NCBI GenBank assembly: GCA_045646345.1
Contig: JAZRKN010000016.1
Coordinates: 1,693 to 65,692, forward strand
From: Candidatus Scatovivens sp.
GTDB taxonomy: Bacteria > Bacillota > Clostridia > TANB77 > CAG-508
Direction: 5' to 3'
DNA length: 64,000 nucleotides
Shown: one piece after another, positions 12,745 through 64,000 of the stretch
Numbering within the stretch: position 1 is the stretch's first letter
Layout of the letters: each line of letters begins with the position of its first letter
The notes under the pieces: model-generated
Told to the model about the DNA's origin: nothing
What the model saw: only the letters and a program-made list of their open reading frames with translations
Database searches by the model: none
Program-made: the position numbers and the translations under genes

Positions 12745-12774
12745 TTGACATTTTATGTTAATTTATGTTATAAT
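12745..12774 (+). promoter_or_regulatory. near-consensus sigma-A promoter (TTGACA-17-TTATAAT) driving the GC-rich ORF
   Basis: ttgacattttatgttaatttatgttataat, divergent from and 6 bp away from the trpS promoter. Confidence 0.65.
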
Positions 12775-12906
12775 TAAATAGTTAACATAGTTATCAACAG
12801 TATGAGTCAAACTCGACTAACCTATAAGGTGCCCAGCCTTACACGAAAAACTATAATAATCTGGGAACGAAAGTATAGACTTCTATACCGTAGGGAAAGG
12901 AAAGAC

Positions 12907-13443: not shown

Positions 13444-13447
13444 TCAA

Positions 13448-13486
13448 AAAGCACGCATCCTGAAAAAGGATGCGTGCTTTTTATTT
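13448..13486. terminator. strong GC-rich bidirectional terminator
   Basis: stem aagcacgcatcc/ggatgcgtgctt with A-run before and T-run after. Confidence 0.8.
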
Positions 13487-15614
13487 AATTTCTTTTTAAA
13501 ATTCTAAGTGTATTTAAAATTGTAAGTAATGTTACACCAACATCAGCAAATACAGCAAGCCACATTTGAGTCAACCCAAATACAGTTAATATTAGTACAA
13601 ATAATTTTGTTCCAATTGCAAATATTAAGTTTTGTTTTATAATTTTATTCGTCTCTTTTGAAATTTTTATAGCTTGTTTTACCTTCTTCAAATCATCTGT
13701 CATTATTACTACATCTGATGCTTCAATTGCAGAACTTGCTCCAATTCCTCCCATTGAAATTCCAATATCAGCAAGAGCAAGTACTGGTGAGTCATTTATT
13801 CCATCTCCAATAAATGCAACTCTTCCTTCTTTTTTATTTTTAATAATATTTTCAATTTCATTATATTTATCTGTCGGAAGCATTTCTGCCTTTACTTCGT
13901 TTATTCCTATTTCATTTGCTACTTTGTTTGCAACTTCCCAATTATCTCCTGTAAACATCATTGTTTTAATTCCAAATTTATTCAAATCTGTTATTACTTC
14001 TTTAGCTTCTGGTTTTATTGTATCGTTTAAAATTAAACATCCAATTACAGAATTATCAATTTTCACATAAATAATTGTTCCTGATTCTTTTTCTTCTTCA
14101 CATTCTACTAAATCATTATTTCCAATTTTTATTATTTTTTCATCTAGTTTATATGAAAGACCTTTTCCTGTTATTTCTTCAAAATCACTTATATTGTCTT
14201 TGTTGATAATTTTTCCATATTTTTCTAAAACAGCTAAAGCTAATGGATGGTTAGAAAAACATTCTCCAAAAGCTGCATATTCTAAAATTTGCTCTTCTGT
14301 ATAACTTTCATCATATAATTTTATTTTTTCTACTTCAAATTTACCTTTTGTTAATGTTCCTGTTTTATCACAAGCTAAATATTTTATATCTTTTAATGCA
14401 TCTAAATAGTTACTTCCCTTTACTAAAATTCCATTTTTCGATGCTTTACCTATTCCTGAAAAATAACTAAGTGGAACAGAAATTGCAATTGCACAAGGAC
14501 AAGAAACAACTAAGAATATTAACGCTCTATATACACTTTCTGAATATGTAAGTGTTGTAAATAAAGGTAATAATGAACCTACTAAAACTGCTAATATAAA
14601 GACAATTGGCGTATATACTCTTGCTGCCTTATTAACAAATGTTTCCGTCTTAGCCTTTTTATCTGTTGCATTTTCAACTAATTCTAAAATTCTATTTACT
14701 GTACTATTCTCATATTTTTCTGTTACTTTTATCTCTATTAAACCTTTTTCGTTTATACTTCCTGATAGTACTTTATCATTTTCTTTTACTTGTCTTAAAA
14801 TTGATTCTCCAGTTAATGAAGCTGTATTTAAACTAGCTTCTCCAGAAAGTACAATTCCATCTAAAGGTATTTTCTCGCCTTGTTTTACAACTATAATATC
14901 ATCAATATTTACTTCTTCTGGACTTACTTTATGATCATGCTTTCCATGTTTTAAATTCGCATATTCTGGTCTTATATCCATTAATGATGATATAGATTTT
15001 CTTGTATTATTAATTGCTTTTTCTTCTAGAATTTTACCAATTTCATAAAGAATAATTACCATTAATCCTTCAAAATGTTCACCTACTGCAAACGCTCCTA
15101 AACAAGATACAGTAATTAAGAAATTTTCATTTACAACTTTTTGCTTCATCAATTTTAATGCATTTTTAGTTGTTCTATATAGTAAAATCACATATGCAAA
15201 AATTAAAATTATAAAATTTATTTTTTCTGGTAATATATTAACAAGAGAAATTAATGTTAATATTAAACCAATCATTAATCTTATCAAATGAGGATTCATT
15301 TTTTTCTTCTCTTTTATATGGCAAGAACCATCACAAGAATGCTCGTGTCCATCTTCGTGTTCATGCTGATGTTTATTTTTTAAATCCAATATTTTTATAT
15401 CAGGTTCTACACTTTTTACTATTTTTTCTATATCTTCTTTTACATCATCTATCTCTGATTCAAAAGAAAGTTTTAATGTATTATAATTTAATACAACATT
15501 TTTATAATCATTATTTTCTGCCACTTTATTTTGTATTTTATTTGCACAATTTGGACATCCTAATCCTTCTAAAATAAACTCATACTTCTTCAATATGTTC
15601 ACGACCTTTCTCAA
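13485..15614 (-). CDS. cadA: heavy-metal translocating P1B-type ATPase (Cd/Zn/Co, CadA/ZntA-like)
   Basis: N-terminal HMA CxxC (GCPNC). His-rich stretch HQHEHEDGHEHSCDGSCH. CPC in TM6 (SCPCAIAI), DKTGT phosphorylation site, GDGINDSP. Confidence 0.9.
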   Translation of the reverse strand: MRKVVNILKKYEFILEGLGCPNCANKIQNKVAENNDYKNVVLNYNTLKLSFESEIDDVKEDIEKIVKSVEPDIKILDLKNKHQHEHEDGHEHSCDGSCHIKEKKKMNPHLIRLMIGLILTLISLVNILPEKINFIILIFAYVILLYRTTKNALKLMKQKVVNENFLITVSCLGAFAVGEHFEGLMVIILYEIGKILEEKAINNTRKSISSLMDIRPEYANLKHGKHDHKVSPEEVNIDDIIVVKQGEKIPLDGIVLSGEASLNTASLTGESILRQVKENDKVLSGSINEKGLIEIKVTEKYENSTVNRILELVENATDKKAKTETFVNKAARVYTPIVFILAVLVGSLLPLFTTLTYSESVYRALIFLVVSCPCAIAISVPLSYFSGIGKASKNGILVKGSNYLDALKDIKYLACDKTGTLTKGKFEVEKIKLYDESYTEEQILEYAAFGECFSNHPLALAVLEKYGKIINKDNISDFEEITGKGLSYKLDEKIIKIGNNDLVECEEEKESGTIIYVKIDNSVIGCLILNDTIKPEAKEVITDLNKFGIKTMMFTGDNWEVANKVANEIGINEVKAEMLPTDKYNEIENIIKNKKEGRVAFIGDGINDSPVLALADIGISMGGIGASSAIEASDVVIMTDDLKKVKQAIKISKETNKIIKQNLIFAIGTKLFVLILTVFGLTQMWLAVFADVGVTLLTILNTLRILKRN

Positions 15615-51400: not shown

Positions 51401-51512
51401 TTTTCTTTGTCAACATAATTTTAATTTTTTATTTTAAAATCCTTCGCTTTACTTTTAGATAAAATCGTGCTATCATATATTCTTGTGTGAATAATCAAAT
51501 TTTGAATAAAGA

Positions 51513-52274
51513 TTGGAGAATGCGAAAATGTCATTATTAGGAATCGTTCGGGATCAACATCTATTACTGCTCTTTGCAGTACAATTTGTAACCTCATTTT
51601 GCTTTATCTACTATGGGAAAAATAAACTCAGCTTTATTTCAGAAATCTTACTAATAATAAGCTGTGTTTTATACCATAAAACACCATTTAACTTGGACAT
51701 ACTACATTGCTATATTGCTGAATATATTTTACTGAAACTTTCTCTTGTTTTGATTGTATATATCGCAAAACGCTTTGCTTTTTTCATTTTGGTAGTAATA
51801 ACCCATAAAGAAAAATACAAAAAAGCGTATAAATTTCTTGTAAAAAAGAAACGTTTTTTGCGATTCCAATCACGCATATGGAATAAAGTAAAATACGGCA
51901 TTAGAATCAAAAAGGGTATTCCATCGATGGTAAACAAAAGAAATGCTCAGCACGGAATTTCTTTTGATAGTGATGGTTTCCCAAAGTTCAAAGTCATCAC
52001 TGAGGTTTACATAGATTCGTGTTATTGGAAAAAAAGCCGAGATGTACATTTTTATCAAGCAAATCGGCAATTATATACTCGAATCAAAAAATACTCTAAA
52101 CTTTCCAAAAAATTTACCAAAAACGAAATCAAAGAATTCAAGCAAGGAAATACTCCTAAAAAATATACTTGGCATCATCACCAAGATAAAGGATTGTTAC
52201 AGCTTGTCGATTCTGAAATTCATGCAAAAGTTCGTCATAATGGTGGATTTTCGATTTGGGGCCCAAGAGAATAA
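51513..52274 (+). CDS. ORF ending in a WHH-type HNH/EndoVII nuclease toxin domain; N-terminal part probably degenerate (orphan toxin module)
   Basis: C-terminus KKYTWHHHQDKGLLQLVDSEIHAKVRHNGGFSIWG matches the WHH nuclease signature (W-HH ... H ... H-GG). N-terminal 130 aa is low-complexity hydrophobic and may not be translated. Alternative start MVNKRNAQHG at 51927. Confidence 0.55.
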   Translation: MENAKMSLLGIVRDQHLLLLFAVQFVTSFCFIYYGKNKLSFISEILLIISCVLYHKTPFNLDILHCYIAEYILLKLSLVLIVYIAKRFAFFILVVITHKEKYKKAYKFLVKKKRFLRFQSRIWNKVKYGIRIKKGIPSMVNKRNAQHGISFDSDGFPKFKVITEVYIDSCYWKKSRDVHFYQANRQLYTRIKKYSKLSKKFTKNEIKEFKQGNTPKKYTWHHHQDKGLLQLVDSEIHAKVRHNGGFSIWGPRE

Positions 52275-52276
52275 CA

Positions 52277-52310
52277 AAAAACCTCCGGTTATACGGAGGT
52301 TTTCTTTTAA
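52277..52310 (+). terminator. intrinsic terminator
   Basis: stem aaaacctccg/cggaggtttt followed by T-run. Confidence 0.75.
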
Positions 52311-52358
52311 ATTAAACAGGGACAGCTTATCTGCTGTCCCTTCGTTTATTTTCGAGAA

Positions 52359-53333
52359 TTATCTCTTAATCATTATTCCGCTTCCACTTGATTTAATAGT
52401 AGTCTCATCAAAATCTTCAATCAACCACATCGCTTTGCTAATTTCAATCTGCTCTTCATTAAGATTGAAACTTCTGCAATATGCCGTTGCGATTTCCTGA
52501 ATCAAGAAATGAAAAACTTCAGGCGCCTGCATATACAGTTCATTGCTTTGAATCATGCAAATTAGATATGCGTTAAGCTGATATGCAATACTGGTTTCAG
52601 CAGGAACTTTTGCCTTAGGATAGATTGCATCTTTCAGTACTTCATTGATATGATCTTCCAGAAGGAAATCTTCATCCATAATGCTTCTGGTCACCAGTTC
52701 AGGGTTTGCAAAAATCATCTGCTGACCAATCATCGCAGCATAGAGATATGCACTATTATTACAAGGATATCCCATCCAGCTTACCAATCTCAGATTTACA
52801 GCTTCTGTAATGGTTTCATAAAGTCCCCAATACATATCAGTATCGTATTCAATACCAAGCATATGAACTACTTCATGACACCAAGTAAAAGGAAAATATT
52901 CAGGCAGATTTTCATAGAGATTTTTGTTTACATAGACAACATTACTTCCAGGCTTATGATAGCCCATCAGCACATTGTCAGAAACACCAATGAGTTTCGT
53001 CTCTACAGAATTGATTTTTTCGGTAACATCAATTCCATATTCGATCTGGAAATATTCAATTACCTTTTCCTTTAATCCTCTAATGTACTCTTTATCAGGA
53101 TTGCAGATTTCGACATTAGACGAATCGATCAAAGAATTAATGTACTCTTTTTCATCCCAAATCATATTTTCTTCAGGAATATCTACAGAGTCACTCTCTT
53201 CCATAAAGAAGAATTCTGCCAGTGTAATTTCCTTATTGGTAGGATCATAGAGATTATCCCTTTTTACTCCACATCCCACCAAAGTGGTCATGAGCATAAC
53301 TACAACCAAAATCATAGCAAAAATTTTTTTCAT
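52359..53333 (-). CDS. lipoprotein with HExxH zinc-metallopeptidase motif
   Basis: lipobox LVGCG; HEVVHMLG; about 40% GC. Confidence 0.55.
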   Translation of the reverse strand: MKKIFAMILVVVMLMTTLVGCGVKRDNLYDPTNKEITLAEFFFMEESDSVDIPEENMIWDEKEYINSLIDSSNVEICNPDKEYIRGLKEKVIEYFQIEYGIDVTEKINSVETKLIGVSDNVLMGYHKPGSNVVYVNKNLYENLPEYFPFTWCHEVVHMLGIEYDTDMYWGLYETITEAVNLRLVSWMGYPCNNSAYLYAAMIGQQMIFANPELVTRSIMDEDFLLEDHINEVLKDAIYPKAKVPAETSIAYQLNAYLICMIQSNELYMQAPEVFHFLIQEIATAYCRSFNLNEEQIEISKAMWLIEDFDETTIKSSGSGIMIKR

Positions 53334-53589
53334 CGTTTTACCTCACTTCATTTAGATATCTCACAAAACATAACTTACGATAAATTATTATTTTTGCTTA
53401 TCAACCTCACTTAGATATAATAAAGACAATAACATATTAGTTTTTTGGTTTCGTTTATCATTCCTTTCTTTATTTACACTTATTCGCTTTATATACAGCG
53501 GTGGAAGCCGCTTATTTTAAATGTGCTCGTCTGCTTATTATAACACCTTTTCGAAGTTATGTCAACTTAGTGCTTTCAAAAAAATTATC

Positions 53590-53630
53590 GCTATTGAATT
53601 TTACTTCAACAGCGATTTTTATTAATTATA
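53590..53630 (-). terminator. intrinsic terminator after the surface-protein gene
   Basis: stem atcgct...agcgat with U-run on the minus strand. Confidence 0.6.
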
Positions 53631-53633
53631 ATT

Positions 53634-56006
53634 TTAATATCTATGTTTAAAATTATATATTTTTTTGTTTTTCTTTTTTCCTAATATAATTACACTAATC
53701 AATACAATTACACATCCAATTATTATAACTGTATTATTACCAGAACCACCAGCTTCCGGCAACTGTATCATCGGTTTATTAGGAACATTTAATATAATTT
53801 CAGGTTCAGAAGATACCATTTCTACTTCATAAATTTCTTCACTTAACTTATAACCATCTGGCGCTTTTATTTCTCTTACTCTATATGTTCCATTATTTAT
53901 ATAACTAACTATAGCCATTCCATCTGAATCTGTAGTATAATCTCCAACAGGAAGAACCGTATCTTCATATATTTGATCTACCGAAAAAACAGCTCCTTCT
54001 AGCGGTTCATTTGTAAAGTAATCATATTTATTGATAATTAAAAGAGTTTGTCTCATGTTAGCAATTGTTGCAATACCATATTCATTGTCATTTACACAGC
54101 TACTCACAAAATATCCATCTGGAATATCAAATTCTGATACTGAATATATTATTTCTTCACCATTTTCATCAAACCTTGGTAAATTCTCAAATTTGTAATA
54201 CCAAACGCCATCATCTGTCACTGTTTCTACATCAAGAGCCATTGTTCCATAAGGATTCGGTGTAATTGCATTATCATCTTTCATTTCTACAACTTCAACT
54301 TCATCATCTTTATTAGATGATAATCTTATATTTATTGACTCTGGTCTTTTAAAATTTTCCGATTCCTCTTCAGAAAGAGCCATTGTTGGAACATCATCTA
54401 CCCATACTTTATAAACTTCATAATCAGTTACTGTTTTTATATATGTGTAGACTACTTCTTGAGTTTCTGGTGTAAATATTCCTGAACAATTTTCTGGTAA
54501 TTCCATTATTTCATAATATAAATATTCACCTACTTCCGCATTATATTCTTCAAATAATTTTCCCTTTAGTTTAACTGGATCTTCTAATTCTTCTCCATAT
54601 TCATCTAAATGTCTTACTATTACATAAGAAACTAAATCTAAATTTGCTGAATTTGTAGTAATTGTATTATCATTTTCTGTTATTACTGCAGTATTTGAAA
54701 TTAAATTTGTCGTTGGATTATCTACAACTTTGGCGTCTATAACAAACTTATAATTCTGTCCTTCATAATTTATCAAATTCAAATAATTTAAATCAAATGT
54801 ATATTCCAAAATATTGTTATTTGTATTTACTGTACCTGCGATATCTGTTATATTATTTTCATTTTCATCATATACAATTAGATTTTTATAAATTAAATTT
54901 GTATTTAATTCATCCAAAAATTTTAGTTTTGATAACCTAAATGTCGTTTCATCTGAAGTTGGCATTTTATATGATATTGTATATTTTATATCTTCTCCAG
55001 CAGTAGCTTCAAATGTTGAAACTTCTTTTATAGCATCACCTTCATAATTCGAAGTTAACGGTAAAAAGTTCATATGGTAACCGTTTGATAAATTAGAATT
55101 TAATGAATGTAAATTTATATTTATATAATCTACATTTTTATACAAAAAAGATATCGCATATTCTTTTTCTAAGAGATTTGATGTGGAATTCATTCCAGCA
55201 TATAAATCATTGTATCTTTTTTCACCATGCGTAATATTTTCTATATAATTTATGTTTGAATTTTTATACAAATATACTTTTGATGAATTACTACTATTTA
55301 TAGCTTCTTTTGCTATTCCATTTTCACCACTTAATCCATATAAAGTGTAATATGCTGTTTCTAATATTATCTTATCAGTTCCATTAACATAAAAATACAC
55401 TTTCATATTAATATTTTCGAATCCTCTTTGATACCATTCATTATTCAAATTTTGATTTTCCACATAACCATAAGACGTCCACCATAATACTTTTGAATTA
55501 TTTAATTTTTTTTGATTTAAGTCATCTCCGGTATATTCACTTCCTGAGAAAAAATCGGAATAAACTATTTTGATATCTATATTGTTTCCATTCAATGTTC
55601 CACAATCTTTAAACAAAGCTTCAATTTCAATATCTACATTTTGATTATACGGTAAATCCATAAATGTAACACTTTTTATTGGTTGTTGCACTTCATCGTT
55701 TTCTATTAATGGTCTTCCTCTATTTACCCCATCTTCTCCATCAATCACATATTGATAATCAGTTTTTATTGTTAGTATTGGTAATTTTGAAAAATTTAAT
55801 TTTAAATTCTCTAATGTTGATTTCTCAAGCAAGGAATTATTATCAATACTTATAGAATTATTGGCTAGTTTTGAATCTAAGTCAATAATTTTATATATAT
55901 CATATTGTGTTTTACTGTAATTTAACAATATACATCCTAATATCGTACTCAAAATAAAACATATCACTATTAAATTAAACTTTAATTTAAATCTATTTTT
56001 TCTCAT
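53634..56006 (-). CDS. cell-wall-anchored surface protein with Cna-B/SpaA-type domain and LPxTG-like sorting signal (LPEAG)
   Basis: 790 aa; N-terminal signal/TM. C-terminal Cna-B pattern (GAVFSV...TTDSDGMAIVSYINNGTYRVREIKAPDGY). Sorting signal LPEAGGSGN followed by hydrophobic segment and KKKNKK tail. Confidence 0.7.
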   Translation of the reverse strand: MRKNRFKLKFNLIVICFILSTILGCILLNYSKTQYDIYKIIDLDSKLANNSISIDNNSLLEKSTLENLKLNFSKLPILTIKTDYQYVIDGEDGVNRGRPLIENDEVQQPIKSVTFMDLPYNQNVDIEIEALFKDCGTLNGNNIDIKIVYSDFFSGSEYTGDDLNQKKLNNSKVLWWTSYGYVENQNLNNEWYQRGFENINMKVYFYVNGTDKIILETAYYTLYGLSGENGIAKEAINSSNSSKVYLYKNSNINYIENITHGEKRYNDLYAGMNSTSNLLEKEYAISFLYKNVDYININLHSLNSNLSNGYHMNFLPLTSNYEGDAIKEVSTFEATAGEDIKYTISYKMPTSDETTFRLSKLKFLDELNTNLIYKNLIVYDENENNITDIAGTVNTNNNILEYTFDLNYLNLINYEGQNYKFVIDAKVVDNPTTNLISNTAVITENDNTITTNSANLDLVSYVIVRHLDEYGEELEDPVKLKGKLFEEYNAEVGEYLYYEIMELPENCSGIFTPETQEVVYTYIKTVTDYEVYKVWVDDVPTMALSEEESENFKRPESINIRLSSNKDDEVEVVEMKDDNAITPNPYGTMALDVETVTDDGVWYYKFENLPRFDENGEEIIYSVSEFDIPDGYFVSSCVNDNEYGIATIANMRQTLLIINKYDYFTNEPLEGAVFSVDQIYEDTVLPVGDYTTDSDGMAIVSYINNGTYRVREIKAPDGYKLSEEIYEVEMVSSEPEIILNVPNKPMIQLPEAGGSGNNTVIIIGCVIVLISVIILGKKKNKKIYNFKHRY

Positions 56007-56099
56007 TATTCACCAATCTATTTTATTCTTAGAGTCAGTATATCATATAATTTTTATTTTGAGGATTTTGTTACCAAAATGTATTAATTCTTACTTACA

Positions 56100-56128
56100 T
56101 TGAATTTTTAAGCATTTTATGTTATAAT
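56100..56128 (+). promoter_or_regulatory. near-consensus sigma-A promoter TTGAAT-17-TATAAT
   Basis: ttgaatttttaagcattttatgttataat upstream of the 56181 ORF. Confidence 0.6.
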
Positions 56129-56180
56129 AGAAATGCAGTTTATATATTTTTTGCATCAAAGCCAATTGGGAGGTGTTAAT

Positions 56181-56786
56181 ATGGCATACAACAGTCTTGA
56201 TTTACGAAAAAAACTGTCTATTGAGGAGTACTATCGGTTCTCTCAACGGTTAGCATATGAATATGCTACCACTTCAGCATCAACTGCTGTTACCGCGCTT
56301 ACTGAAAAATATGATGTTACAAAAAGCGCATTTTACACATTGCTGGAATTTGCTATAACTCATCATTTGGTTTCTGATAAAGTTGTCCAATCGATTCGAG
56401 AAAAGCTTGTTTCCAATCTTGCAGCTCATGGTTGCAAAGGTTACAAAAGCAATGTGAAATACAATCAGTTAACAGCAAAAAGAGACAATTTTTCCGCATT
56501 CCAAAAAAAGGATATTGAGTATATTGCAAAATATTACGCTATGCATCCTGAGGAATCCAAGCAGGAAGTCACAGCTCGTTTTCATTTCTATAGTCCCAAA
56601 GTATTGAATCGACTTTTGAAACGGGCTTGTATGGAATTAATCATCACAGACAAAATTTTCAATATGCTTCGTCAAAGAGCAATCGATAATGCAGTAGATC
56701 TTGATTACACAATCAATTTCTTTTGCGAGCTTGCTCGTTATCGCGACAAAGCAAAACAAATCAAGAAAAGCCAATCTGCATTCTAA
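56181..56786 (+). CDS. hypothetical protein (201 aa) in a higher-GC cassette
   Basis: start MAYNSLDLRKK with RBS gggaggtg; about 40% GC; followed by a bidirectional terminator at 56805-56845. Confidence 0.5.
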   Translation: MAYNSLDLRKKLSIEEYYRFSQRLAYEYATTSASTAVTALTEKYDVTKSAFYTLLEFAITHHLVSDKVVQSIREKLVSNLAAHGCKGYKSNVKYNQLTAKRDNFSAFQKKDIEYIAKYYAMHPEESKQEVTARFHFYSPKVLNRLLKRACMELIITDKIFNMLRQRAIDNAVDLDYTINFFCELARYRDKAKQIKKSQSAF

Positions 56787-56804
56787 CGCAGACAGAACTG
56801 TAAA

Positions 56805-56845
56805 AAAGAACTACATCCAAAAATGTAGTTCTTTCTTTTTTATTT
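56805..56845. terminator. bidirectional intrinsic terminator
   Basis: stem aagaactacat/atgtagttctt with flanking A/T runs. Confidence 0.75.
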
Positions 56846-56849
56846 TTAA

Positions 56850-57107
56850 TTAATTAAGAAATAATGAATCTCTTACCAGCAATTCAAATGTGTCTAACCA
56901 AAGCTTATGCTCTCCCATTTTCTTTTTATAAATTAAATGTAATACTTCATTAGCATAATTAAATGTATCTTTACTCATTTCAGTTTTTATTATATCTCTC
57001 ATTTCAAATATAAAAGAATCTCTTCTAAGATATGGTATATCAATAGGATTATCAATATTTAGCAATTCTGATAGCTCTTGTAAACTTTTTTGTATTCTCT
57101 CTTCCAT
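56850..57107 (-). CDS. small protein (85 aa) tightly coupled downstream of the 918-aa gene; possible immunity/partner protein
   Basis: 11-nt gap to upstream gene on the same strand; no motif recognised. Confidence 0.4.
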   Translation of the reverse strand: MEERIQKSLQELSELLNIDNPIDIPYLRRDSFIFEMRDIIKTEMSKDTFNYANEVLHLIYKKKMGEHKLWLDTFELLVRDSLFLN

Positions 57108-57118
57108 AACAATTCCTC

Positions 57119-59875
57119 CTATAACTCAATTTCATCAGTATTTTGTGCATTAGTTTTTTTACTTTTTGCAGTTTTTCTTTTTGTATCTCTTACAACTTCA
57201 GATAATTGTCTTGCAGCTTCTCTTGCAGAGTATTTCTTGTCCAAAGCTTTTCGCAAAGAAAATTTTAAAACTGAATTCGAAACAATTGGTTCAAAGCCAT
57301 TTTGGGGCCTTGCAACACCTGATACTTTTCTTATAACTTCTCTTGGATCCATATATGTTTTTTCTACTCCAAGACTTAATATATCTCTTGTTGACTCTTG
57401 TCGAACTCCAGTTGAAACAAATAGAGTATCTGCTTTTAATCCTTCTTCATTTTTTTCAGATACATCGATCTCATAATTAATTTTAATAGCTTGTTTTCTA
57501 GTTATAGCTTCAGCTTTATCATATACAGAAAATTCTGAAATTTTTGTTATCCTATCTCTTTTTTCTTCCAAGTCACCTTTACCTGTAGCTTCAACTTCAT
57601 GTTTTGAAACTCTAGTAGAAGGAATTATCATTTCACTAATAACTTCGCTTTTTTGTGGATCCGGCAATTCTAAACCATTATCTTCAATTAATTGTCTAAA
57701 TTGCTCATTATCAAGTAATTTCTTTATTACTTGAGTTCTCATTGATTGTTCATACACTCTCTCTGATATATTGTTCTTCTTAGCAATTAATTCTTTATCA
57801 TAATCATATATAGTCAATATAGATTCAATTGGCATATTATTTATATAATATTCCTGTAAAAAATATAACTCATGCTCATTTAATCCAAATGTTTCTTCTG
57901 GATTTTCTTGCATTATTTTTTCTATACAACTTCCCACTTCAACTGGATTTTTCGCTATATCTTTTAAAAACTTTTCTTGTCTTTTCGTTCTTCTGTCTTC
58001 TGTTAATAATAAAGCATCATATAATATTGGATCTATTTCTACTATCGCCTCTTTAGGAATTATTCCTTTAAATAAAACCTCTCTTGAAGCAGGTGCATAT
58101 TTTCTCACTCTTTCATGTTTTTTCTCTTTGCCAGATTTATCAATCTTTGAAGATATTAATGATGAGCCTGCATCACGTAAAATTCCTTCTTGATAACTAA
58201 TCTTTCCACCTTGTGAAAAATCAATTATTCCTTCAGGAAGTTTTTCTCTACCAACATATATTAAATTTTCTTCATTTTCAATAATAGATAATCTTTCTGT
58301 GATTTTATTTTTTTGTTCTTCAGATAGTTTAGCTCTTTCTAATAATTGTTTTAAAAATTCTTTTTCTCCAGTCAAAGCCATTTTTTCATCATTTATAATA
58401 CCCAAACGTTGTCCCATTAATTCATAAACTTTATCTATGTTTATCAAAAATACCGATGCTCTTTGATTTTTATAAGCATTCCCAGAAGGAAATTCACTTA
58501 AATATGTTGCTGATATAGCAAATATCTTACTTGTTGAAATAAATGAAGTTTGCATTCCTGGTTTTGAGCCTTGTTCTATATGTGTTTGAGGTGAAATTCT
58601 AGAATCCAAATCCGCAGCTATAATTTCATTTCCATATTTAGAATCTTGCGCTCTGAATAACATTTCTGGGAAATCATACTTTTGTTTTATACTTTCACTC
58701 CATTCTAGTTTTCTTTGTTCTATATATTCATTTTCAGTTACACTTACATATTCACTTATCAAATCTCCCAAAACATCTTTTTTTACCAAAGATGGCATTT
58801 CATCCAATATACCTGCGATATAATTAGTTCCGTTATTCATTTTTTTAAAAAAGGGTTCATTTGGAAATCTAACATGTGTTATATACTTTTCTATGTCATT
58901 TTCGCTTTTTCCTTCTTTTCTTAATTGTACAATATCTTCAAAAATAGTTTTTAAAACAATTTCTGCACACCTTTCCCATTCTCGAGTAATTTTTTGTTTT
59001 GGATATTTTTTTCGATTTTGTTCTTTTAATTTATTTACATACACCTTATAGTTAATAGATTTTGAAATAAACTCTTCTGCTGAAACACCTTCATTTTCTT
59101 TTTCTTCTAACAGTTTTAAGAAAATTTTCAAATTATAATATCCAGCATCTACATCTCTTTTTTTTGAAGTTCCATATCTAGACATTCTTACTTGATCAGT
59201 CAATTTACTTACTTCTTCTTCTATTAACTTTTCTAACTCTTCTTCTTTTATCTTACTATGTTGTTCTACTTGTAAAGACAAACAATCTCTCTCATATTCT
59301 CTTGTATAAAACGCTGCTATAAGTTCTGAATACGAACTCATCATTTCAGGATTTTCAGTTAATATTTCAGTCAATTCCTTAGGTGATATTCCTAATGAAT
59401 TTTTTAAATATTCAGATTCTCTTTCCATAATTGGCTTTACACTTTTTCTCTCTTCTACAGAATATTGATCGTGCAAAATCAACATATCTTTCATTCTTGC
59501 ATCTTTACGAAATAAGTTCAAAATTGTATCAAAATCTTCTATTGTGACATCAGCTTTATTTATTAACTCATTAATTAACTTTTTTAAATCTTGATCTCTT
59601 ACAGGTTCTTTTCCTTCAAAAATTTCGCAAAAATCATCGATTACTAAATCCATTTCAGTTTCAAATACTAATCGATCATTCTTTTTTCCTCCCAAAAGTA
59701 TTGCATCTTCTACAAAAACAAAATCTTCCTTATAATCATAATCTCCAATTATTCTCTCATAAGATTTTAATTTTTCTTTGTATTCTGGTTTTCTTTCTAA
59801 TAAAACTCTTATTAATTTATTTTTTATTGCTATTTGATCTGAATAACTCAAATTATCAAATAATTCCCTTACCAT
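57119..59875 (-). CDS. large hypothetical cytoplasmic protein (918 aa)
   Basis: no TM. Central region has FR...(38 aa)...FISTS...(about 57 aa)...GEKEF, which loosely matches the R-S-E spacing of ADP-ribosyltransferases (speculative). Confidence 0.45.
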   Translation of the reverse strand: MVRELFDNLSYSDQIAIKNKLIRVLLERKPEYKEKLKSYERIIGDYDYKEDFVFVEDAILLGGKKNDRLVFETEMDLVIDDFCEIFEGKEPVRDQDLKKLINELINKADVTIEDFDTILNLFRKDARMKDMLILHDQYSVEERKSVKPIMERESEYLKNSLGISPKELTEILTENPEMMSSYSELIAAFYTREYERDCLSLQVEQHSKIKEEELEKLIEEEVSKLTDQVRMSRYGTSKKRDVDAGYYNLKIFLKLLEEKENEGVSAEEFISKSINYKVYVNKLKEQNRKKYPKQKITREWERCAEIVLKTIFEDIVQLRKEGKSENDIEKYITHVRFPNEPFFKKMNNGTNYIAGILDEMPSLVKKDVLGDLISEYVSVTENEYIEQRKLEWSESIKQKYDFPEMLFRAQDSKYGNEIIAADLDSRISPQTHIEQGSKPGMQTSFISTSKIFAISATYLSEFPSGNAYKNQRASVFLINIDKVYELMGQRLGIINDEKMALTGEKEFLKQLLERAKLSEEQKNKITERLSIIENEENLIYVGREKLPEGIIDFSQGGKISYQEGILRDAGSSLISSKIDKSGKEKKHERVRKYAPASREVLFKGIIPKEAIVEIDPILYDALLLTEDRRTKRQEKFLKDIAKNPVEVGSCIEKIMQENPEETFGLNEHELYFLQEYYINNMPIESILTIYDYDKELIAKKNNISERVYEQSMRTQVIKKLLDNEQFRQLIEDNGLELPDPQKSEVISEMIIPSTRVSKHEVEATGKGDLEEKRDRITKISEFSVYDKAEAITRKQAIKINYEIDVSEKNEEGLKADTLFVSTGVRQESTRDILSLGVEKTYMDPREVIRKVSGVARPQNGFEPIVSNSVLKFSLRKALDKKYSAREAARQLSEVVRDTKRKTAKSKKTNAQNTDEIEL

Positions 59876-59995
59876 AATTTATACCTCTTTTTTTTAAATA
59901 TATTATTATATTACCACTATTTATGGTCCTAAAACATAACAATTACATTTCATTATGTTATCAAATCACTTATATTTCAACAAACAAGTTGTAAT

Positions 59996-60175
59996 TTATC
60001 TTTCATAAGAATCTTCTAATTTTTTTCTTCCTTCACGTGATATTTCTACTGTTACAGCTTGATTTACCGTTGTTTTTCCTTTTTTACTCTGTTTTGATTG
60101 ATTATTGTTTTTGTTTGGATTTTGATTCGAATTAAATGTCGTTTTGTAAACTGGATCAATTTTTTCTATTTTCAT
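59996..60175 (-). CDS. candidate small basic N/K/Q-rich protein (59 aa)
   Basis: GGAGG RBS 7 nt upstream; not in the supplied track (below its length cutoff). Confidence 0.3.
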   Translation of the reverse strand: MKIEKIDPVYKTTFNSNQNPNKNNNQSKQSKKGKTTVNQAVTVEISREGRKKLEDSYER

Positions 60176-60289
60176 ATAATTTCCTCCGTTTTTTCATTTA
60201 TTTAATTCTATCATAAAAGTAAAAAAAATATATAATTATTATATATTTTTTTACTTTTAGAAAATATTTTATTTTTTTTCAAAAAAGTG

Positions 60290-60318
60290 TTGACATCTTA
60301 AAATTTAAATTGTATAAT
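60290..60318 (+). promoter_or_regulatory. consensus sigma-A promoter (TGnTTGACA-17-TATAAT) for tRNA-Leu
   Basis: gtgttgaca tcttaaaatttaaattg tataat. Confidence 0.7.
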
Positions 60319-60356
60319 ATCACTTGTCAGTTGGAAAACTGATTGCCAGTAAAAAT

Positions 60357-60445
60357 GCAGATGTGGCGGAACTGGCAGACGCACAGGACTTAAAATCCTG
60401 CGGGACCTAAATCCCGTGCCGGTTCGATTCCGGCCATCTGCACCA
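60357..60445 (+). tRNA. tRNA-Leu (anticodon UAA) with encoded CCA
   Basis: acceptor stem gcagatg/catctgc, anticodon loop cTTAAaa, long variable arm, T-arm ccggTTCGATTccgg, terminal ACCA. Confidence 0.9.
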
Positions 60446-60478
60446 AATCTTGAGAGAAATCTCAAGATTTTTTTTATT
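60446..60478 (+). terminator. intrinsic terminator after tRNA-Leu
   Basis: stem atcttgaga/tctcaagat followed by a T8 run. Confidence 0.8.
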
Positions 60479-60757
60479 TCAAAATTATTTAACATTATTT
60501 AAAAGCATTGATAATACTAGGCTTTGTGTCTAGTATTATTTTTTTCCTAATTTAACAGTATGTGTCATTATTTAAATTTTTTTATTATTTACCACCCACC
60601 TTAACACCCTCAAAAAACACCCTCTATTTTTAAATTTATTAAAAATAATATAAAAATATGCTTTTTTGTGTCAAAAATAGCTATATTTTGAACACAAAAA
60701 ATAATCGTGCAAAAGAAGATGGGACAAGAGATTGCTGGATTATTTTTGAGAAAATTT

Positions 60758-60790
60758 TCAATGAAAATCAATGAAAATCAATGAATTTTA
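60758..60790 (+). repeat. tandem direct repeat, about 2.6 copies of the 10-bp unit atgaaaatca, upstream of the xis-like gene
   Basis: tcaatgaaaatcaatgaaaatcaatgaatttt, followed by palindrome gaattttaaaaaattc. Confidence 0.6.
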
Positions 60791-60873
60791 AAAAATTCAT
60801 TTTTTTCGTGTTATCATGAAGTTAGTTCGAACAAAAAATATTTCTAGAAATTAAATTTAAAAGGAGTGTTTTT

Positions 60874-61131
60874 ATGAATAATAATGTAATTAATCAAACA
60901 AAAGATAAAAAATATACAAAAGCAGAATTGATAACAATTGATTCTATTAGAAGAGTAAAAAATCCATTTAGAATGATTACTGTTAAAGATGTTATGAAAG
61001 ACTTAAATATATGTGAGACTGTCGCATATAAAACATTTAAAAGACCAGATTTTCCATCCATAAATGTAGGCAAAAATAATCAAGTAATGTTATTGGCTTA
61101 TTTATTATGGAAAATGGAAAAAAGAGATTAG
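60874..61131 (+). CDS. xis: excisionase/AlpA-like small HTH DNA-binding protein
   Basis: 85 aa, basic, immediately upstream of and overlapping the integrase gene; HTH-like segment NICETVAYKTFKRPDFP. Confidence 0.55.
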   Translation: MNNNVINQTKDKKYTKAELITIDSIRRVKNPFRMITVKDVMKDLNICETVAYKTFKRPDFPSINVGKNNQVMLLAYLLWKMEKRD

Positions 61132-61142
61132 GAGGTGTTTAT

Positions 61143-62333
61143 ATGGCTGCTATACATACACAAGAAGGTACAGTTTATTATGAAAAAACAAGAAATCGTT
61201 GGAGATGTGATTATAAAATTTTAGATCCCGATACATCTAAATTTATAAGAAAAACAAAAACATTTCGTTCTGAACAAGATGCAAGAGATTTTTTTTCAAT
61301 GCTTCAATATCAAAAAGGTAATGATTTATATGTGAAAAATAATGGTATACCTTTAAATAAATTAATACGAAGTATTTTAGAAAGAAAATTAGAAACTGGA
61401 GTTATTGGTGAAAGAACATATGCTAGAACAATGGAAACAATTACAGCAATGGAAAAATGCGAGATACTTAAGAAAAATATTGATGATATATCTAGTGTGG
61501 AGCTACAAAGTTATTTAAATTCTTTAAGACATTATAGTCAAAATACTATAAAGAAATTTATGGATCAATTAAATCATGCATTTAAATATGCTCAAAATAA
61601 AGGGTATATAATAAAAAATCCTATGTTTGATATTATAAAACCTAAAAGTAATAAACAACCAAGAGAAGTTCGTGCATTAGAGATTGAAGAACAACAAAAA
61701 TTAACTGATTATTTACTATATGTTCCTATTAGTGAAGAACCATTTAAGAATGTATTTTTATTACAAATGTTTTTAGGACTTCGTATAGGAGAGGCATTAG
61801 CGTTGCAAGTAAGTGATATAAATTTATACAAGAATATAATTTGTATATCAAAAACTTTAACAACAGATAAAAATCGAAAAGTAATTATGGGAGATAAAAC
61901 AAAAACTTATGCTGGAAAAAGAGAAATACCTATACCAGATTTTTTATTAAATGAAATAAAAAATCAAATGAGATTAGCAGAAAATAATAAAGATAAATTA
62001 TTATTTGTTGATAAAGCTAATAATTATGTATTACCAAATAACGCAAATAGGAATTTACAAAAGATCGCTCAAAATTTGGGAATTGAAAATATATCAAGTC
62101 ATAGTTTAAGACATACTTATGGAACAAGATGTATTGAAGCTGGAATGAGAGCAGTTGCCCTTCAAAGACTTATGGGACATACTGATATAGCTGTTACATT
62201 AAACACTTATACTTCAATATTTAATAAATATAAAGAGCAAGAATTAGAAAAAGTAAATGAATATTATCTAAATAATGAAATTTTAATGAAAAGAAATTTG
62301 CTACAGGATGATACTGAAAATATTCGAAATTAA
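61143..62333 (+). CDS. int: tyrosine-type site-specific recombinase/integrase
   Basis: catalytic signature LRIGEALAL...HSLRHTYGTRCIEAG...LMGHTDIAVTLNTYTS (R...HxxR...Y). RBS aggagg before the ATG at 61143. Confidence 0.9.
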   Translation: MAAIHTQEGTVYYEKTRNRWRCDYKILDPDTSKFIRKTKTFRSEQDARDFFSMLQYQKGNDLYVKNNGIPLNKLIRSILERKLETGVIGERTYARTMETITAMEKCEILKKNIDDISSVELQSYLNSLRHYSQNTIKKFMDQLNHAFKYAQNKGYIIKNPMFDIIKPKSNKQPREVRALEIEEQQKLTDYLLYVPISEEPFKNVFLLQMFLGLRIGEALALQVSDINLYKNIICISKTLTTDKNRKVIMGDKTKTYAGKREIPIPDFLLNEIKNQMRLAENNKDKLLFVDKANNYVLPNNANRNLQKIAQNLGIENISSHSLRHTYGTRCIEAGMRAVALQRLMGHTDIAVTLNTYTSIFNKYKEQELEKVNEYYLNNEILMKRNLLQDDTENIRN

Positions 62334-62849
62334 TTTCGAATATTAATAGAAAACGTTTTCGTTTTCTAAATAGTACATAAATCAATTTTGATTTGTGTAC
62401 TATAAATAAGATATTAAAAACTATTCAACATTATTCGTTAGAATACATTGAATAGTTTTTAATAATCTTTAATAAGGGTTTATTAAGGGATATGCCCTTA
62501 ATCATACAGAGAACTTTTTTAAAGTTCTCTAGTATGTTAGAGCACTTAATGCTTATAGTAAATTTAAAGAAGTGCAATACAGTAAAGCATAAGTAATACC
62601 TCGTAAGCTCTACTTAAATAAAAATAGAGATAAAATATTAATGAAATAATTTCATATACTCATTAATGGAACAATTGATAATTAATCTCTTTTATGATAA
62701 TATCAAGCTATAAAATAGTAATTTGATATTTTCACTTTATTGTGATTATATAAAAAATTTTAAAGGAGGTATTTTTTGAGAAAAATTAATATAGGTATAT
62801 TGGAACTCGTATTAGATTTGTAAAAACAAATCAATAGGAGGAAATAAAA

Positions 62850-63566
62850 ATGAAATATGAAAAAACAGAAAAATACGATACTGAATTAATTAATCAAAAA
62901 ATTATGGGACCTAACCCATTAAAATTGGAAGAAGAACTTATGAAAGACAATAGAATAAAAAAAGGTTCAATTGTTATGGATTTGGGCAGTGGACAAGGTG
63001 TTACATCAATATTTTTAGTAAAAGAATATGGATTTAAAGTTTATGCGACAGATCTTTGGAGTGATGCAGGAGAAAATAAGAAATTCTTTTCTGAAATGGG
63101 ATTAACAGATAAACAAATTATTCCTGTAAAAGCTGATGCTACAGACTTGAAATATGAAAAAGAATTCTTTGATGCGGTTGTTAGCACCGATTCTTATAAT
63201 TATTTTGGAAGAGATGAAAATTATTTAGATGAAAAACTTTTACCTTTTGTAAAAAAAGATGGTTATATCTATATAGTTGTTCCAGGAATGAAAAAAGACT
63301 GTCATAATAATATTCCAAAAGAATTATTGTTATCTTGGACACCTGAACAATTAGACTATATTCACGATATAGAATATTGGAAAAATATTGTTTCGAAATC
63401 AAAAAATAGTGAAATTATTTCAATTTATGAAATGGAAAGTAATGAAGAATGTTGGAATGATTGGATAAAATGCGAAAATGAATATGCTATAAATGATAAA
63501 AAAGCTATTGATGCAGGTGCTTGTAAATATTTGAATTTTATTGCTATTGTTTTAAAGAAAAAATAA
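62850..63566 (+). CDS. class I SAM-dependent methyltransferase
   Basis: motif I VMDLGSGQGVTS; acidic motif II around VYATDLW; RBS aggagg. Confidence 0.7.
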   Translation: MKYEKTEKYDTELINQKIMGPNPLKLEEELMKDNRIKKGSIVMDLGSGQGVTSIFLVKEYGFKVYATDLWSDAGENKKFFSEMGLTDKQIIPVKADATDLKYEKEFFDAVVSTDSYNYFGRDENYLDEKLLPFVKKDGYIYIVVPGMKKDCHNNIPKELLLSWTPEQLDYIHDIEYWKNIVSKSKNSEIISIYEMESNEECWNDWIKCENEYAINDKKAIDAGACKYLNFIAIVLKKK

Positions 63567-63631
63567 GTTATAAAGGCTGATATAATTATATATCAGCCTT
63601 ACAAATTACAATTTGTAAGGAAGAATATATA

Positions 63632-64000
63632 TGGAATTTGGAGAAAAAATACAAAAATTAAGAAATCAAAATAAATGGACACAAGAACAATTGGCAGAAA
63701 AATTATATGTATCTAGAACCGCTGTATCAAAATGGGAAAGTGGAAAAGGTTATCCTAATATCGATTCATTAAAAGATATAGCGAAATTATTTAATAAAAC
63801 AATAGATGAATTATTATCAAGTGAAGAAATAATAGATATTGCTAAAATAGAAAATACATCTAATATAAAAAGAACAAATAACTTAATATATGGACTATTA
63901 GATATAATTAGTGTGTTATTTATATTTTTACCACTATATGCACAAAAAGCAGAAAACTTTGTATATTCTGTATCTTTAATTAGTACAAATGATTTAAGTA
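63632..64000 (+). CDS. XRE-family HTH transcriptional regulator with C-terminal membrane segment (partial, runs off the window)
   Basis: HTH_3 signature QEQLAEKLYVSRTAVSKWESGKGYPNIDSLKDIAKLF. Confidence 0.7.

Follow-up and report, generated by a model that had tools for sequence, protein, structure and literature searches.

The right end of a 64,000-nucleotide stretch of DNA from Candidatus Scatovivens sp. (GenBank assembly GCA_045646345.1, contig JAZRKN010000016.1; the whole stretch is called the window below) raises the question of what kind of element has been inserted at the 3' end of a tRNA-Leu(UAA) gene, and how such an element could move. The tRNA gene is followed by genes for a small excisionase-like (Xis-like) protein and a tyrosine integrase (int), a hairpin-rich spacer and the first cargo genes. 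A comparison of the window with related contigs and loci, which are designated by L-numbers (L001, L005, L007 and so on), points to the following answer. Positions 60436-64000 are quite probably the left 3.6 kb of a reduced, relaxase-less derivative of an integrative mobilizable element (IME) at tRNA-Leu(UAA), with an origin of transfer (oriT) of the MOBV type and a probable bacitracin-type cargo. The features that carry this argument are listed here.

60357-60445, + strand: complete tRNA-Leu(UAA) gene, anticodon taa, encoded CCA (ARAGORN; Rfam tRNA 59.3 bits); integration target, attB side of attL
60436-60445, + strand: attachment (att) core ATCTGCACCA, the terminal 10 nt of the tRNA; occurs once in the 64-kb window
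60874-61131, + strand: Xis-like gene, 85 aa, probable recombination directionality factor (RDF)
61143-62333, + strand: intact tyrosine integrase gene, 396 aa (Phage_integrase 4e-25; Phage_int_SAM_5; PHROG 1 integrase 2.5e-67)
62412-62640, + strand: conserved intergenic region between int and mob, including the block AGTAATACCTCGTAAGCT; putative MOBV-type oriT region
62641-62649, + strand: remnant of a DUF3848 gene start, ATG AAA TAA, at the left edge of the DUF3848-MobV-DUF6809 deletion (alignment with canonical IMEs; ribosome-binding site decayed)
62675-62703, + strand: outward cargo promoter TTGATA-17-TAATAT with TG extension, conserved in L007 and in the canonical IME L022
62850-63566, + strand: class I S-adenosylmethionine (SAM)-dependent methyltransferase gene, 238 aa (Methyltransf_25/11/23/31, CMAS)
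63631-64000, continuing off the window, + strand: gene for a BcrR-family membrane-bound XRE regulator, first 123 of 208 aa (HTH_3 3.9e-18)

The parent family

The genomic contexts of homologues of the Xis-like protein define a canonical backbone. It begins with attL, a Spo0A_C-like gene on the minus strand, an XRE regulator gene (238 aa), a gene of 104-165 aa depending on the locus (the 155-aa gene mentioned below), a DUF3846 gene and the Xis-like gene. It continues with the integrase gene, an 88-aa open reading frame (ORF), a gap of ~430 bp in most loci, the DUF3848, Mob_Pre and DUF6809 genes, the cargo and attR. The integrases are 349-404 aa long in the gene calls and ~395 aa long where the gene is intact, and the Mob_Pre relaxases have 322-331 residues. 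The relaxase of L029 matches Mob_Pre at 8e-43 and contains the MOBV1 motifs HxxR, NYxL and HxDExxPHxH, as listed in PMC5090054. Judged by this gene content, the members of the family are IMEs of ~9 kb.

The element in the window belongs to this family. It keeps the left arm, the Xis-like gene, the integrase gene, the hairpin region between int and mob, the outward promoter and the right-end gene of the family. Its integrase is 98% identical to that of L007 and 94% identical to that of L008, both metagenome-assembled genomes of Ca. Scatovivens (Clostridia). The tRNA-Leu(UAA) gene also adjoins related elements in L005, L007, L008, L024, L028 and L037-L041, and more distant relatives, with integrases 49-53% identical, adjoin tRNA-Glu(CTC).

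The tRNA-Leu integration site

The tRNA-Leu gene is the only tRNA gene that ARAGORN finds in the window. It has its own promoter and terminator.

60290-60318, + strand: tRNA-Leu promoter TTGACA-17-TATAAT, 12/12 consensus match; host DNA, outside the element
60445-60478, + strand: tRNA terminator, hairpin AAATCTTGAGA-GAAA-TCTCAAGATTT (60445-60470) and T-run

ARAGORN, Rfam, the perfect promoter match and the hairpin with its T-run all agree with the original prediction, made from the sequence of the window, that the tRNA-Leu gene is complete and has a consensus promoter and a terminator. In the terminator scan, four terminator-like sites were observed and 0.5 were expected. In other hosts the promoter region is conserved yet diverged, with 86-97% identity in the 160 nt that precede the core. 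A sequence identical to the terminator hairpin of the window sits after the core at attR of L007, L029 and L027, and the window hairpin is therefore of the native tRNA trailer type.

The identity between copies changes abruptly at the end of the tRNA gene. Between the window and L005 it rises from 88.9% over the promoter and the tRNA to 99.8% (2185 of 2190 positions) from the tRNA 3' end onwards, and further upstream it falls to 51%, which is unalignable. For L007 the corresponding values are 84% in the host flank and 98% in the element. The genes upstream of the tRNA differ as well: a 59-aa ORF and a 918-aa ORF in the window, a glycyl-tRNA synthetase (GlyQS) and a lipoprotein gene in L005 and L008, and a substrate-binding protein (SBP)/ABC-transporter operon in L007 and L028, which is placed 8.8 kb further off in the window. 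In L028 the flank and the tRNA are of the L007 type, but another family member, a full-length canonical IME, lies downstream. Occupancy of the site thus varies between a canonical IME (L028), a reduced element with other cargo (L007) and the element of the window.

This pattern of flank and element identity is what recent transfer to an integration hot spot would be expected to leave, not what a fixed remnant would show. The claim that an integrative element lies at the tRNA-Leu(UAA) 3' end and runs off the window is borne out by the relatives, with their attL and attR, tandem arrays and different occupants.

The 8.8-kb segment between the SBP_bac_3/ABC-transporter operon and tRNA-Leu (51440-60240) is strain-variable and has no counterpart in L007 and L028. 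Its genes specify a Colicin-DNase/WHH toxin (51513-52274) and, on the minus strand, a 790-aa SpaA/Cna_B/MucBP surface adhesin (53634-56006) and the 918-aa protein (57119-59875), for which neither Pfam nor PADLOC gives a match. The segment contains neither a copy of the att core nor an integrase gene.

Attachment sites and tandem arrays

The core ATCTGCACCA is the only sequence common to every attL and attR of the family and is, for this reason, the presumed crossover region. The shared core is 10-11 nt long, (C)ATCTGCACCA, and the duplication takes in no more than the last 10-13 nt of the tRNA. In some host and element pairs the identity of attL and attR reaches ~45 bp, through the tRNA terminator. 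In L029 the core pair at 46 and 9106 bounds a 9.06-kb element. Further copies are found in L007 (at 7837, 12581 and 13882), L024 (1959 and 13708), L027 (6200, 15259 and 17830) and L038 (13486 and 3393), the last with a backbone inverted with respect to the tRNA. The search for a direct repeat of the tRNA 3' end, proposed earlier as a check, is thus successful in these relatives. The 23-nt string proposed for that search would miss the true repeat, because so little of the tRNA is duplicated.

The right-end arm is conserved as well, reading ...CCGTGCCGTAC-ATCTGCACCA or, in the reduced lineage, ...GCGC-ATCTGCACCA. The right-end (P) arm CCGTGCCG-TAC-ATCTGCACCA (L029 9085-9115, L024 13690-13717, L027 15240-15268) resembles the T-arm and the acceptor end of the tRNA minus the T-loop. 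It may be a vestige of a tRNA or a core-binding site of the integrase.

Some relatives carry more than one element at the site. The second and third cores of L007 enclose a segment (12581-13892) that matches DNA downstream of attR in L024 and holds a truncated integrase gene, which lies on the opposite strand and abuts the third core. This arrangement makes L007 a tandem array in which the second element has decayed and, as in L037-L041, has an inverted backbone. In L011, cargo of the L007 type is followed by the core and then by the left arm and xis-int, an order that would fit either a tandem junction or a circle junction. L011 was first read as the attP junction of a circle, and this reading is weakened by its P' hairpin, which differs from that of L007.

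Contig L001 reaches 1.6 kb past the window. Its last gene, of the HI_0787_N type, shares 87% identity with the L022 gene that precedes the attR core by ~100 bp. The copy in the window is therefore predicted to end ~2.2 kb beyond the window, which would give a total length of ~5.7 kb.

Genes lost from the element

A canonical IME has its own relaxase gene, and the element of the window has none. The deletions that reduced it can be mapped by homology. At the left, the end of the canonical IME L029 (77-232) has its homologous counterpart at 60459-60611, and the promoter and 5' untranslated region (UTR) of the canonical operon (L029 2307-2395) have theirs at 60800-60878. As these two homologies flank the place where the Spo0A_C-like, XRE, 155-aa and DUF3846 genes would lie, these genes have been deleted internally.

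At the right, the remnant of the DUF3848 start adjoins a region (62616-62730) that aligns with the sequence following DUF6809 in L022, including the promoter. Judging from this junction, the DUF3848-MobV-DUF6809 operon has been cleanly excised. Homologues of Mob_Pre, DUF3848 and the 88-aa ORF were found neither in the 64-kb window (tblastn) nor among the genes of L001 in the 1.2 kb beyond it, and a relaxase gene would not fit into the unseen right end, which is put at ~0.5 kb. L007 shares the reduced structure up to window position 62724, where the identity ends; its cargo beyond that point is different.

The putative origin of transfer

The spacer at 62334-62849 is 515 bp long and non-coding. 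Its inverted repeats had been noticed before, and they are present, with spacings of 19 nt instead of 20 for aactattcaa/ttgaatagtt and of 5 nt instead of 7 for agagaactt/aagttctct. The earlier picture of a generic hairpin-rich spacer has to be replaced by that of a conserved int-mob intergenic region with the architecture of a MOBV oriT. Positions 62412-62640 share 72-81% identity with the DNA immediately upstream of DUF3848/Mob_Pre in every canonical relative and contain the invariant motif TCTAGTATG/TTAGA. The central features are as follows.

62482-62502: hairpin 1, 7-8-nt arms
62503-62536: IR3-like hairpin, inner arms 62508-62516 and 62522-62530 (perfect repeat 62508-62530, 9-10-nt arms)
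62527-62542: nick-flanking inverted repeat CTCTA/TAGAG
62536-62537, + strand: predicted nick site, GTATG/TT, where the IR3-like hairpin has its 3' end, by analogy with pMV158 and IMESag-rpsI

The conservation of the hairpins was examined in an alignment of 13 distinct versions of the spacer core, all of which have two hairpins followed by the invariant TCTAGT(A/G)TGTTA. In hairpins 1 and 2, 97.8% of the cells of the alignment pair and compensatory changes occur at 12 of the 18 pairs. None of 500 shuffles reaches the observed values, and slid partners pair in 44-65%. In the predicted fold of the single-stranded DNA (-17.6 kcal/mol, z = -8.0), hairpin 2 is lengthened by CATAC/GTATG, with a bulge of one base. 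The resulting extended, IR3-like hairpin is 100% paired in the 13 sequences, including two loci in which CATAC/GTATG has changed to CACAC/GTGTG. A second inverted repeat, CTCTA-GTATGT-TAGAG, overlaps the right arm of the extended hairpin; it is 95% paired and shows weak covariation. In the reduced lineage the hairpin pairs and the nick motif are all unchanged.

By chance alone the density of inverted repeats is modest, with three perfect repeats whose arms have 9 nt or more where 0.59 would be expected (P ~0.03), and 15 of 247 tiles of the window match the count in the spacer. The strong evidence for the hairpins is thus comparative and does not come from chance statistics. The 14-nt motif TCTAGTRTGTTAKA occurs once in the window (0.15 expected) and exactly once per Mob_Pre gene in 28 fetched loci. 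Two of the loci, L037b and L016, carry GTGTG/TT next to two other, unrelated Mob_Pre genes, in one case 42 nt upstream of the gene and in the other ~460 nt upstream on the opposite strand.

The same order of elements is found in the oriT of plasmid pMV158, where IR1 lies inside a longer, bulged IR3 and the 3' end of IR3 is the G/T nick in 5'-GTGTG/TT-3' (PMC5863519). The arms of an overlapping repeat, IR2, encompass the nick (PMC5863519). The nick sequence of the streptococcal element IMESag-rpsI is GTGCG/TT (PMC5090054). A 41-mer of the pMV158-type oriT, used as a query against the plasmid collection, finds 603 plasmid records, the majority of them classed as mobilizable; in pSA8589 it lies 41 nt upstream of mobV. 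The spacer itself gives only chance-level AT-rich matches to plasmids (blastn), and a search of Rfam at a permissive E-value finds only the tRNA and nothing in the spacer.

Because of its position upstream of the MobV operon in the relatives, its covarying hairpins and its pMV158-like nick architecture, window 62480-62545 is best read as a MOBV-type oriT that has been kept without a relaxase (an orphan oriT). The nick is predicted to fall between G62536 and T62537.

The left part of the spacer contains further repeats.

62319-62344: palindrome over the int stop codon, 15-nt arms
62347-62368: terminator-like hairpin, 9-nt arms, perfect
62370-62403: inverted repeat, 16 nt, 94%
62412-62464: inverted repeat, 17-nt arms, perfect

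The three hairpins at 62319-62411 are specific to the reduced lineage, where they stand in place of the 88-aa ORF region of the canonical relatives; positions 62302-62412 have no similarity to canonical IMEs. In the canonical member L036, an rve-family insertion sequence (5434-7027) separates the oriT from the mob operon; it lies a few bases downstream of the nick hairpin.

Integrase, Xis-like protein and left arm

The integrase has the full set of catalytic residues: R214, H320-x-x-R323, H346 and Y356. As predicted originally, the Xis-like gene and the integrase gene read away from the tRNA. Their proposed overlap holds only if the integrase starts at the ATG at 61107. The ATG at 61143, which is preceded by AGGAGG and is used in the gene calls on three independent contigs, leaves an 11-nt gap after xis.

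The Xis-like protein has 275 homologues, none of which is annotated or has a Pfam domain. Variants of it were individually found in more than 150 blocks of the assembly collection. For the protein itself, Pfam gave only a sub-threshold match to DUF1836, and NCBIfam, PHROGs, PADLOC and a profile search of the PDB gave nothing. Comparison of folds was informative where the sequence libraries were not. An AlphaFold model built with 44 homologues (pLDDT 82.5) has a beta-alpha-alpha-beta-beta wing followed by a C-terminal helix, and its top Foldseek match is the excisionase TorI, with a probability of 0.96 and an E-value of 0.15. At the level of fold and synteny, this match and the fixed position of the gene just upstream of int support the role of an RDF, which the protein probably has.

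The left arm contains several repeats and the promoter of the xis operon.

60486-60873, + strand: left (P') arm of the element
60510-60540: second terminator-like hairpin
60603-60624: direct repeat AACACCCTC, two copies
60662-60701: inverted repeat
60758-60785: 10-bp tandem repeat TCAATGAAAA, 2.8 copies, 100% match
60780-60801: perfect palindrome AATGAATTTT-AA-AAAATTCATT
60788-60817: extended -10 promoter
60840-60851: 5'UTR palindrome ATTTCTAGAAAT

The 10-bp tandem repeat and the palindrome upstream of xis had been described before and are confirmed, with 2.8 copies of the repeat instead of 2.6; they may be binding sites, as was suggested originally. The repeat overlaps the -35 region of a promoter that is conserved in the family and is itself confined to the reduced lineage. 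Its copy number varies from 2.8 in the window to five in L014 (960-1010). L014 has a coverage of 1.1 and a left part of high GC content and looks chimeric; it is used here only to illustrate this variation. Neither TCAATGAAAA nor AACACCCTC was found near the right ends of related elements, where arm sites of the integrase would be predicted.

Although its sequence changes across the family (window, L029, L012 and L022), the 12-nt 5'UTR element of the xis operon is a palindrome in each of its forms: ATTTCTAGAAAT, ATTTCCGGAAAT, ATTATCGATAAT and CTGTCGACAG. Its conservation suggests an operator or an RNA hairpin.

Cargo genes

The conserved outward promoter fronts two different sets of cargo. In the window it precedes the methyltransferase and BcrR-like genes, and in L007 it precedes genes for a P-loop kinase-like protein, an extracytoplasmic function (ECF) sigma factor and an anti-sigma factor. 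Two smaller features accompany the methyltransferase gene.

62777-62824, + strand: 15-codon TTG-start ORF (MRKINIGILELVLDL) with a strong AGGAGG ribosome-binding site, between the cargo promoter and the methyltransferase gene
63573-63600: terminator hairpin after the methyltransferase gene

The 15-codon ORF is conserved only in contigs of the identical lineage and may be a leader peptide or an attenuator.

The domain matches agree with the original prediction that the cargo begins with a SAM-dependent methyltransferase and an XRE ORF. The matches of the methyltransferase to NCBIfam models are all far below the cut-offs, its relatives in the PDB are small-molecule or protein methyltransferases, and no DNA-methyltransferase family is matched. 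PADLOC gives a partial match to mad2 (2.9e-12 over 128 of 492 profile positions, the SAM domain). By these matches the protein is a generic methyltransferase of the small-molecule type.

The XRE regulator, described earlier as membrane-tethered, is a BcrR homologue. The full-length protein in L001 has an N-terminal XRE helix-turn-helix (HTH) domain and four predicted transmembrane helices in 208 aa, and it is 48% identical over 204 aa to BcrR of Enterococcus faecalis (E 1e-66). In blastn searches its gene matches bcrR on plasmids of Enterococcus and Ligilactobacillus. The next gene in L001, in the same direction, encodes a 216-aa PAP2 phosphatase, a candidate undecaprenyl-pyrophosphate phosphatase. 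It is followed by a CDP-alcohol phosphatidyltransferase gene (L001 4583-4976, ~1 kb past the window), which has a 119-nt frameshifting deletion relative to L017 and is, by this comparison, a pseudogene in the lineage of the window. With the HI_0787_N-type gene at the end of L001, the known gene content of the element is xis, int, the methyltransferase, BcrR-like and PAP2 genes, the CDP-alcohol phosphatidyltransferase pseudogene and the HI_0787_N-type gene.

The BcrR-PAP2 pair is a probable resistance module of the bacitracin type, not a restriction-modification system. The genes after the BcrR-like gene include neither a BcrAB ABC transporter nor BcrD/UppP, and the PAP2 and CDP-alcohol phosphatidyltransferase genes are found instead. 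The module occurs outside this family as well. Homologues of the PAP2 protein number thousands at 85-95% identity in metagenomes, and the whole module of BcrR, PAP2 (91-95% identical) and CDP-alcohol phosphatidyltransferase genes is also found on an unrelated element with Mob_Pre and an integrase (L016 9209-17347) and, next to genes for an ABC-F protein and a serine recombinase, in L018 (3040-8273).

Full-length members of the family (L037-L041, L044, L042, L032) carry a class A beta-lactamase with VanZ, chloramphenicol acetyltransferase (CAT), a response regulator with an ABC transporter, or ECF sigma modules.

Alternative explanations

Several observations weigh against the view of the element as a relaxase-less IME derivative with a MOBV-type oriT and bacitracin-type cargo. 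The case for the oriT consists entirely of position, architecture and covariation; covariation does not discriminate between a DNA cruciform and an RNA structure, and the nick motif has one base changed from that of pMV158 (GTATG instead of GTGTG). In the 64-kb window neither a relaxase gene nor a mating-pore gene was found, and no helper was seen there. The attR of this copy lies outside the window and beyond L001 and was not recovered. Look-ups of the exact methyltransferase and integrase proteins gave contigs of at most 5.2 kb, none of which reaches attR; a walk through PAP2 homologues led to other mobile elements, and one through the last gene of L001 led to L044, the contig of which ends inside that gene. 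The size of ~5.7 kb is accordingly an extrapolation from L022. A search by way of the 59-aa host ORF that adjoins the tRNA found no empty attB in the same species. The PAP2 protein matches the models of the undecaprenyl-diphosphatase SepP and of PgpB/YodM weakly. Finally, the reduced element is without the family XRE regulator and has a frameshifted CDP-alcohol phosphatidyltransferase gene, and it could be on its way to decay.

The last point leads to the most serious of the alternatives, in which the element is a decaying, immobile relic of an IME that has become fixed, its integrase and oriT-like hairpins being leftovers without a current function. The loss of the relaxase operon, the XRE regulator and the 88-aa ORF, the frameshift in a cargo gene of the same lineage, and relatives with a truncated int at the same site (for example L007 13457-13892) would all be natural in such a relic. 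We consider it unlikely, however, since the reading frames of int and xis are intact with the catalytic residues present, the hairpin pairs and the nick motif have not changed in the reduced lineage, and the element is 99.8% identical in two tRNA-Leu contexts whose flanks are 89% identical or unalignable. Moreover, the same xis-int-oriT block is joined at the same promoter to two sets of cargo, in the window and in L007. A somewhat less probable alternative concerns the hairpin block alone, which might be a transcriptional or RNA regulatory element (a promoter/operator or leader of the DUF3848-mob operon, terminators after int, or a small RNA) rather than an oriT. The block does lie between int and the mob operon in every canonical relative, its covariation is equally compatible with RNA structure, and the lack of an Rfam match neither supports nor excludes a new RNA. 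The two roles can also coincide, as the oriT of pMV158 overlaps the mob promoters (PMC5863519). The block has, however, been kept intact after deletion of the operon that it would regulate; the invariant TCTAGT(A/G)TG/TTA follows the hairpin exactly at the nick position of pMV158 and IMESag-rpsI, and the motif with GTGTG/TT stands beside two other, different Mob_Pre genes.

The remaining two alternatives are much weaker. It was suggested originally that the methyltransferase is an orphan enzyme or part of a restriction-modification or defence island. An orphan DNA methyltransferase as the first cargo gene of such an island would account for the position of the gene and for the partial PADLOC match to mad2. 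This suggestion now seems very improbable: the matches are to generic SAM families (Methyltransf_25/11, CMAS, and the sarcosine, ArsM and TehB types, below curated cut-offs), and no DNA-methyltransferase family is among them. The downstream genes in L001, namely BcrR-like, PAP2, the CDP-alcohol pseudogene and the HI_0787_N type, include no nuclease or defence partner, and PADLOC adds to the partial mad2 match only generic HTH matches. That the element is a remnant of a prophage or phage satellite is scarcely credible. The integrase does match the large PHROG 1 family, and the 3' ends of tRNA genes are classical phage attachment sites. Yet a blastn search with 60200-64000 against 50,697 phage records matches only the tRNA, a scan of IMG/VR with the integrase finds no relative, and the relatives of the element all carry Mob_Pre relaxases, with no phage structural or replication genes seen. 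Against plasmids, the same segment matches only the tRNA and bcrR.

Proposed mode of mobilization

If the element is a mobilizable derivative of the family, its transfer can be pictured as follows. The integrase and the Xis-like factor would recombine the two ATCTGCACCA cores and excise the element as a circle. The MobV relaxase of a co-resident, full-length member of the family would then act in trans, nicking the + strand between G62536 and T62537. In the recipient, the integrase would reinsert the element at tRNA-Leu and restore the 3' end of the tRNA. The conserved outward promoter would drive whatever cargo has been swapped in.

A further step is tentative, and at present we would sooner doubt it than accept it. 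The element might be a second-order hitchhiker, a mini-island of ~5.7 kb born by deletion, which uses the relaxase of its parental family, while the parent uses a mating pore supplied by a conjugative element. The promoter on the oriT side would then be a plug-in slot for cargo, occupied by the methyltransferase and BcrR-PAP2 genes in the window and by the kinase and ECF sigma/anti-sigma genes in L007.

Comparison with known systems

Integrative elements that carry an oriT and lack a relaxase are known as mobilizable genomic islands (MGIs; Daccord et al.; PMC5704250, section 3.2), and a recent survey of six proteobacterial species treats them under the name of iOriTs (Ares-Arroyo et al., bioRxiv 10.64898/2026.01.13.699239). 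As it keeps the oriT-like region and has no relaxase or mating-pore genes, the element fits the iOriT/MGI definition on its testable features. It resembles these elements in having its own tyrosine integrase and a probable RDF, site-specific integration, no relaxase or mating pore, a putative oriT like that of relaxase-bearing elements, and probable adaptive cargo. It differs in host and size: the known elements are mostly proteobacterial and measure 18-50+ kb, whereas this one resides in gut Clostridia and has a predicted length of ~5.7 kb. The iOriT hitchers are reported to be genetically unrelated to their helpers apart from the oriT (bioRxiv 10.64898/2026.01.13.699239). The present hitcher, in contrast, is clearly a deletion derivative of its probable helper family: its integrase region has 75-81% DNA identity to that family, and its arms, cargo promoter and right-end gene are homologous as well.

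IMEs that combine a tyrosine integrase with a MOBV relaxase are well known in streptococci (PMC5357655, PMC5090054). The canonical relatives are similar to one of these, the MOBV1 element IMESag-rpsI of Streptococcus agalactiae, in their small size (~9 kb), tyrosine integrase, Mob_Pre relaxase with MOBV1 motifs, and an oriT of overlapping inverted repeats with a G/T nick motif just upstream of the mob operon. They differ in the unannotated Xis-like family, in the DUF3846, DUF3848 and DUF6809 genes of the backbone and in that no Rep_Trans gene was seen. The target is the 3' end of tRNA-Leu(UAA), not rpsI, and the copy in the window is without a relaxase.

The likeness to the oriT of pMV158 (MobM; PMC5863519, PMC3105389) extends to a hairpin 6-8 nt before the nick, a bulged IR3 ending at the G/T nick, a second overlapping inverted repeat that flanks the nick, and the shared core TAGT(G/A)TG/TTA, with 10 of 12 bases around the nick identical. 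The window differs in the nick pentamer (GTATG, not GTGTG), in the additional upstream hairpin (62482-62502), in the sequences of the stems and in encoding no cognate relaxase in cis. The cargo can be compared in the same way with bcrR-bcrABD of E. faecalis. A full-length BcrR homologue is again followed, in the same direction, by the gene of a candidate undecaprenyl pyrophosphate phosphatase. BcrAB and BcrD/UppP are replaced here by a PAP2 protein (BcrC/PgpB-like class, weak matches) and a frameshifted gene for a small CDP-alcohol phosphatidyltransferase.

NBU1 of Bacteroides (PMC5704250, Table 1) is likewise a small mobilizable integrative element with a tyrosine integrase, targeting a tRNA-Leu 3' end. 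The likeness is one of lifestyle and target type only. NBU1 belongs to another phylum and has its own relaxase. The analogy with CP4-57 of E. coli (ssrA), drawn originally, is valid for position: an integrase gene reads away from a small RNA gene with an att site at its 3' end, near a gene for a small HTH protein of the AlpA type. It does not reach beyond position, as CP4-57 is a cryptic prophage with a P4-type integrase. The integrase of the window has the Phage_int_SAM_5 and Phage_integrase domains and no match to a P4-type arm-binding domain, and the relatives of its element are mobilizable elements, not phages.

Implications

The element provides an example, from a Gram-positive gut commensal, of an integrative element that keeps only an integrase, a probable excisionase and a putative oriT. 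The sequence shows both how the hitcher arose, a defined IME family having lost its relaxase operon, and which elements probably help it. Its particular features are its host group, its small size and its clear descent from the probable helper family, and current concepts are unchanged by the finding. Annotation pipelines miss the excisionase-like family, the covarying motif of the MOBV-type oriT and the 10-nt att core at tRNA-Leu(UAA).

If the element were indeed a second-order hitchhiker, it would represent a nested parasite of a parasite that spreads resistance modules at tRNA-Leu in gut Clostridia, and it would contrast with the reported unrelatedness of iOriTs to their helpers. The family appears to be common in gut metagenomes. 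Since its members carry beta-lactamase, CAT, ABC-transporter and BcrR-PAP2 modules, it is plausibly a vehicle for resistance genes in gut Clostridia, and may offer these genes a route among uncultured members of the group.

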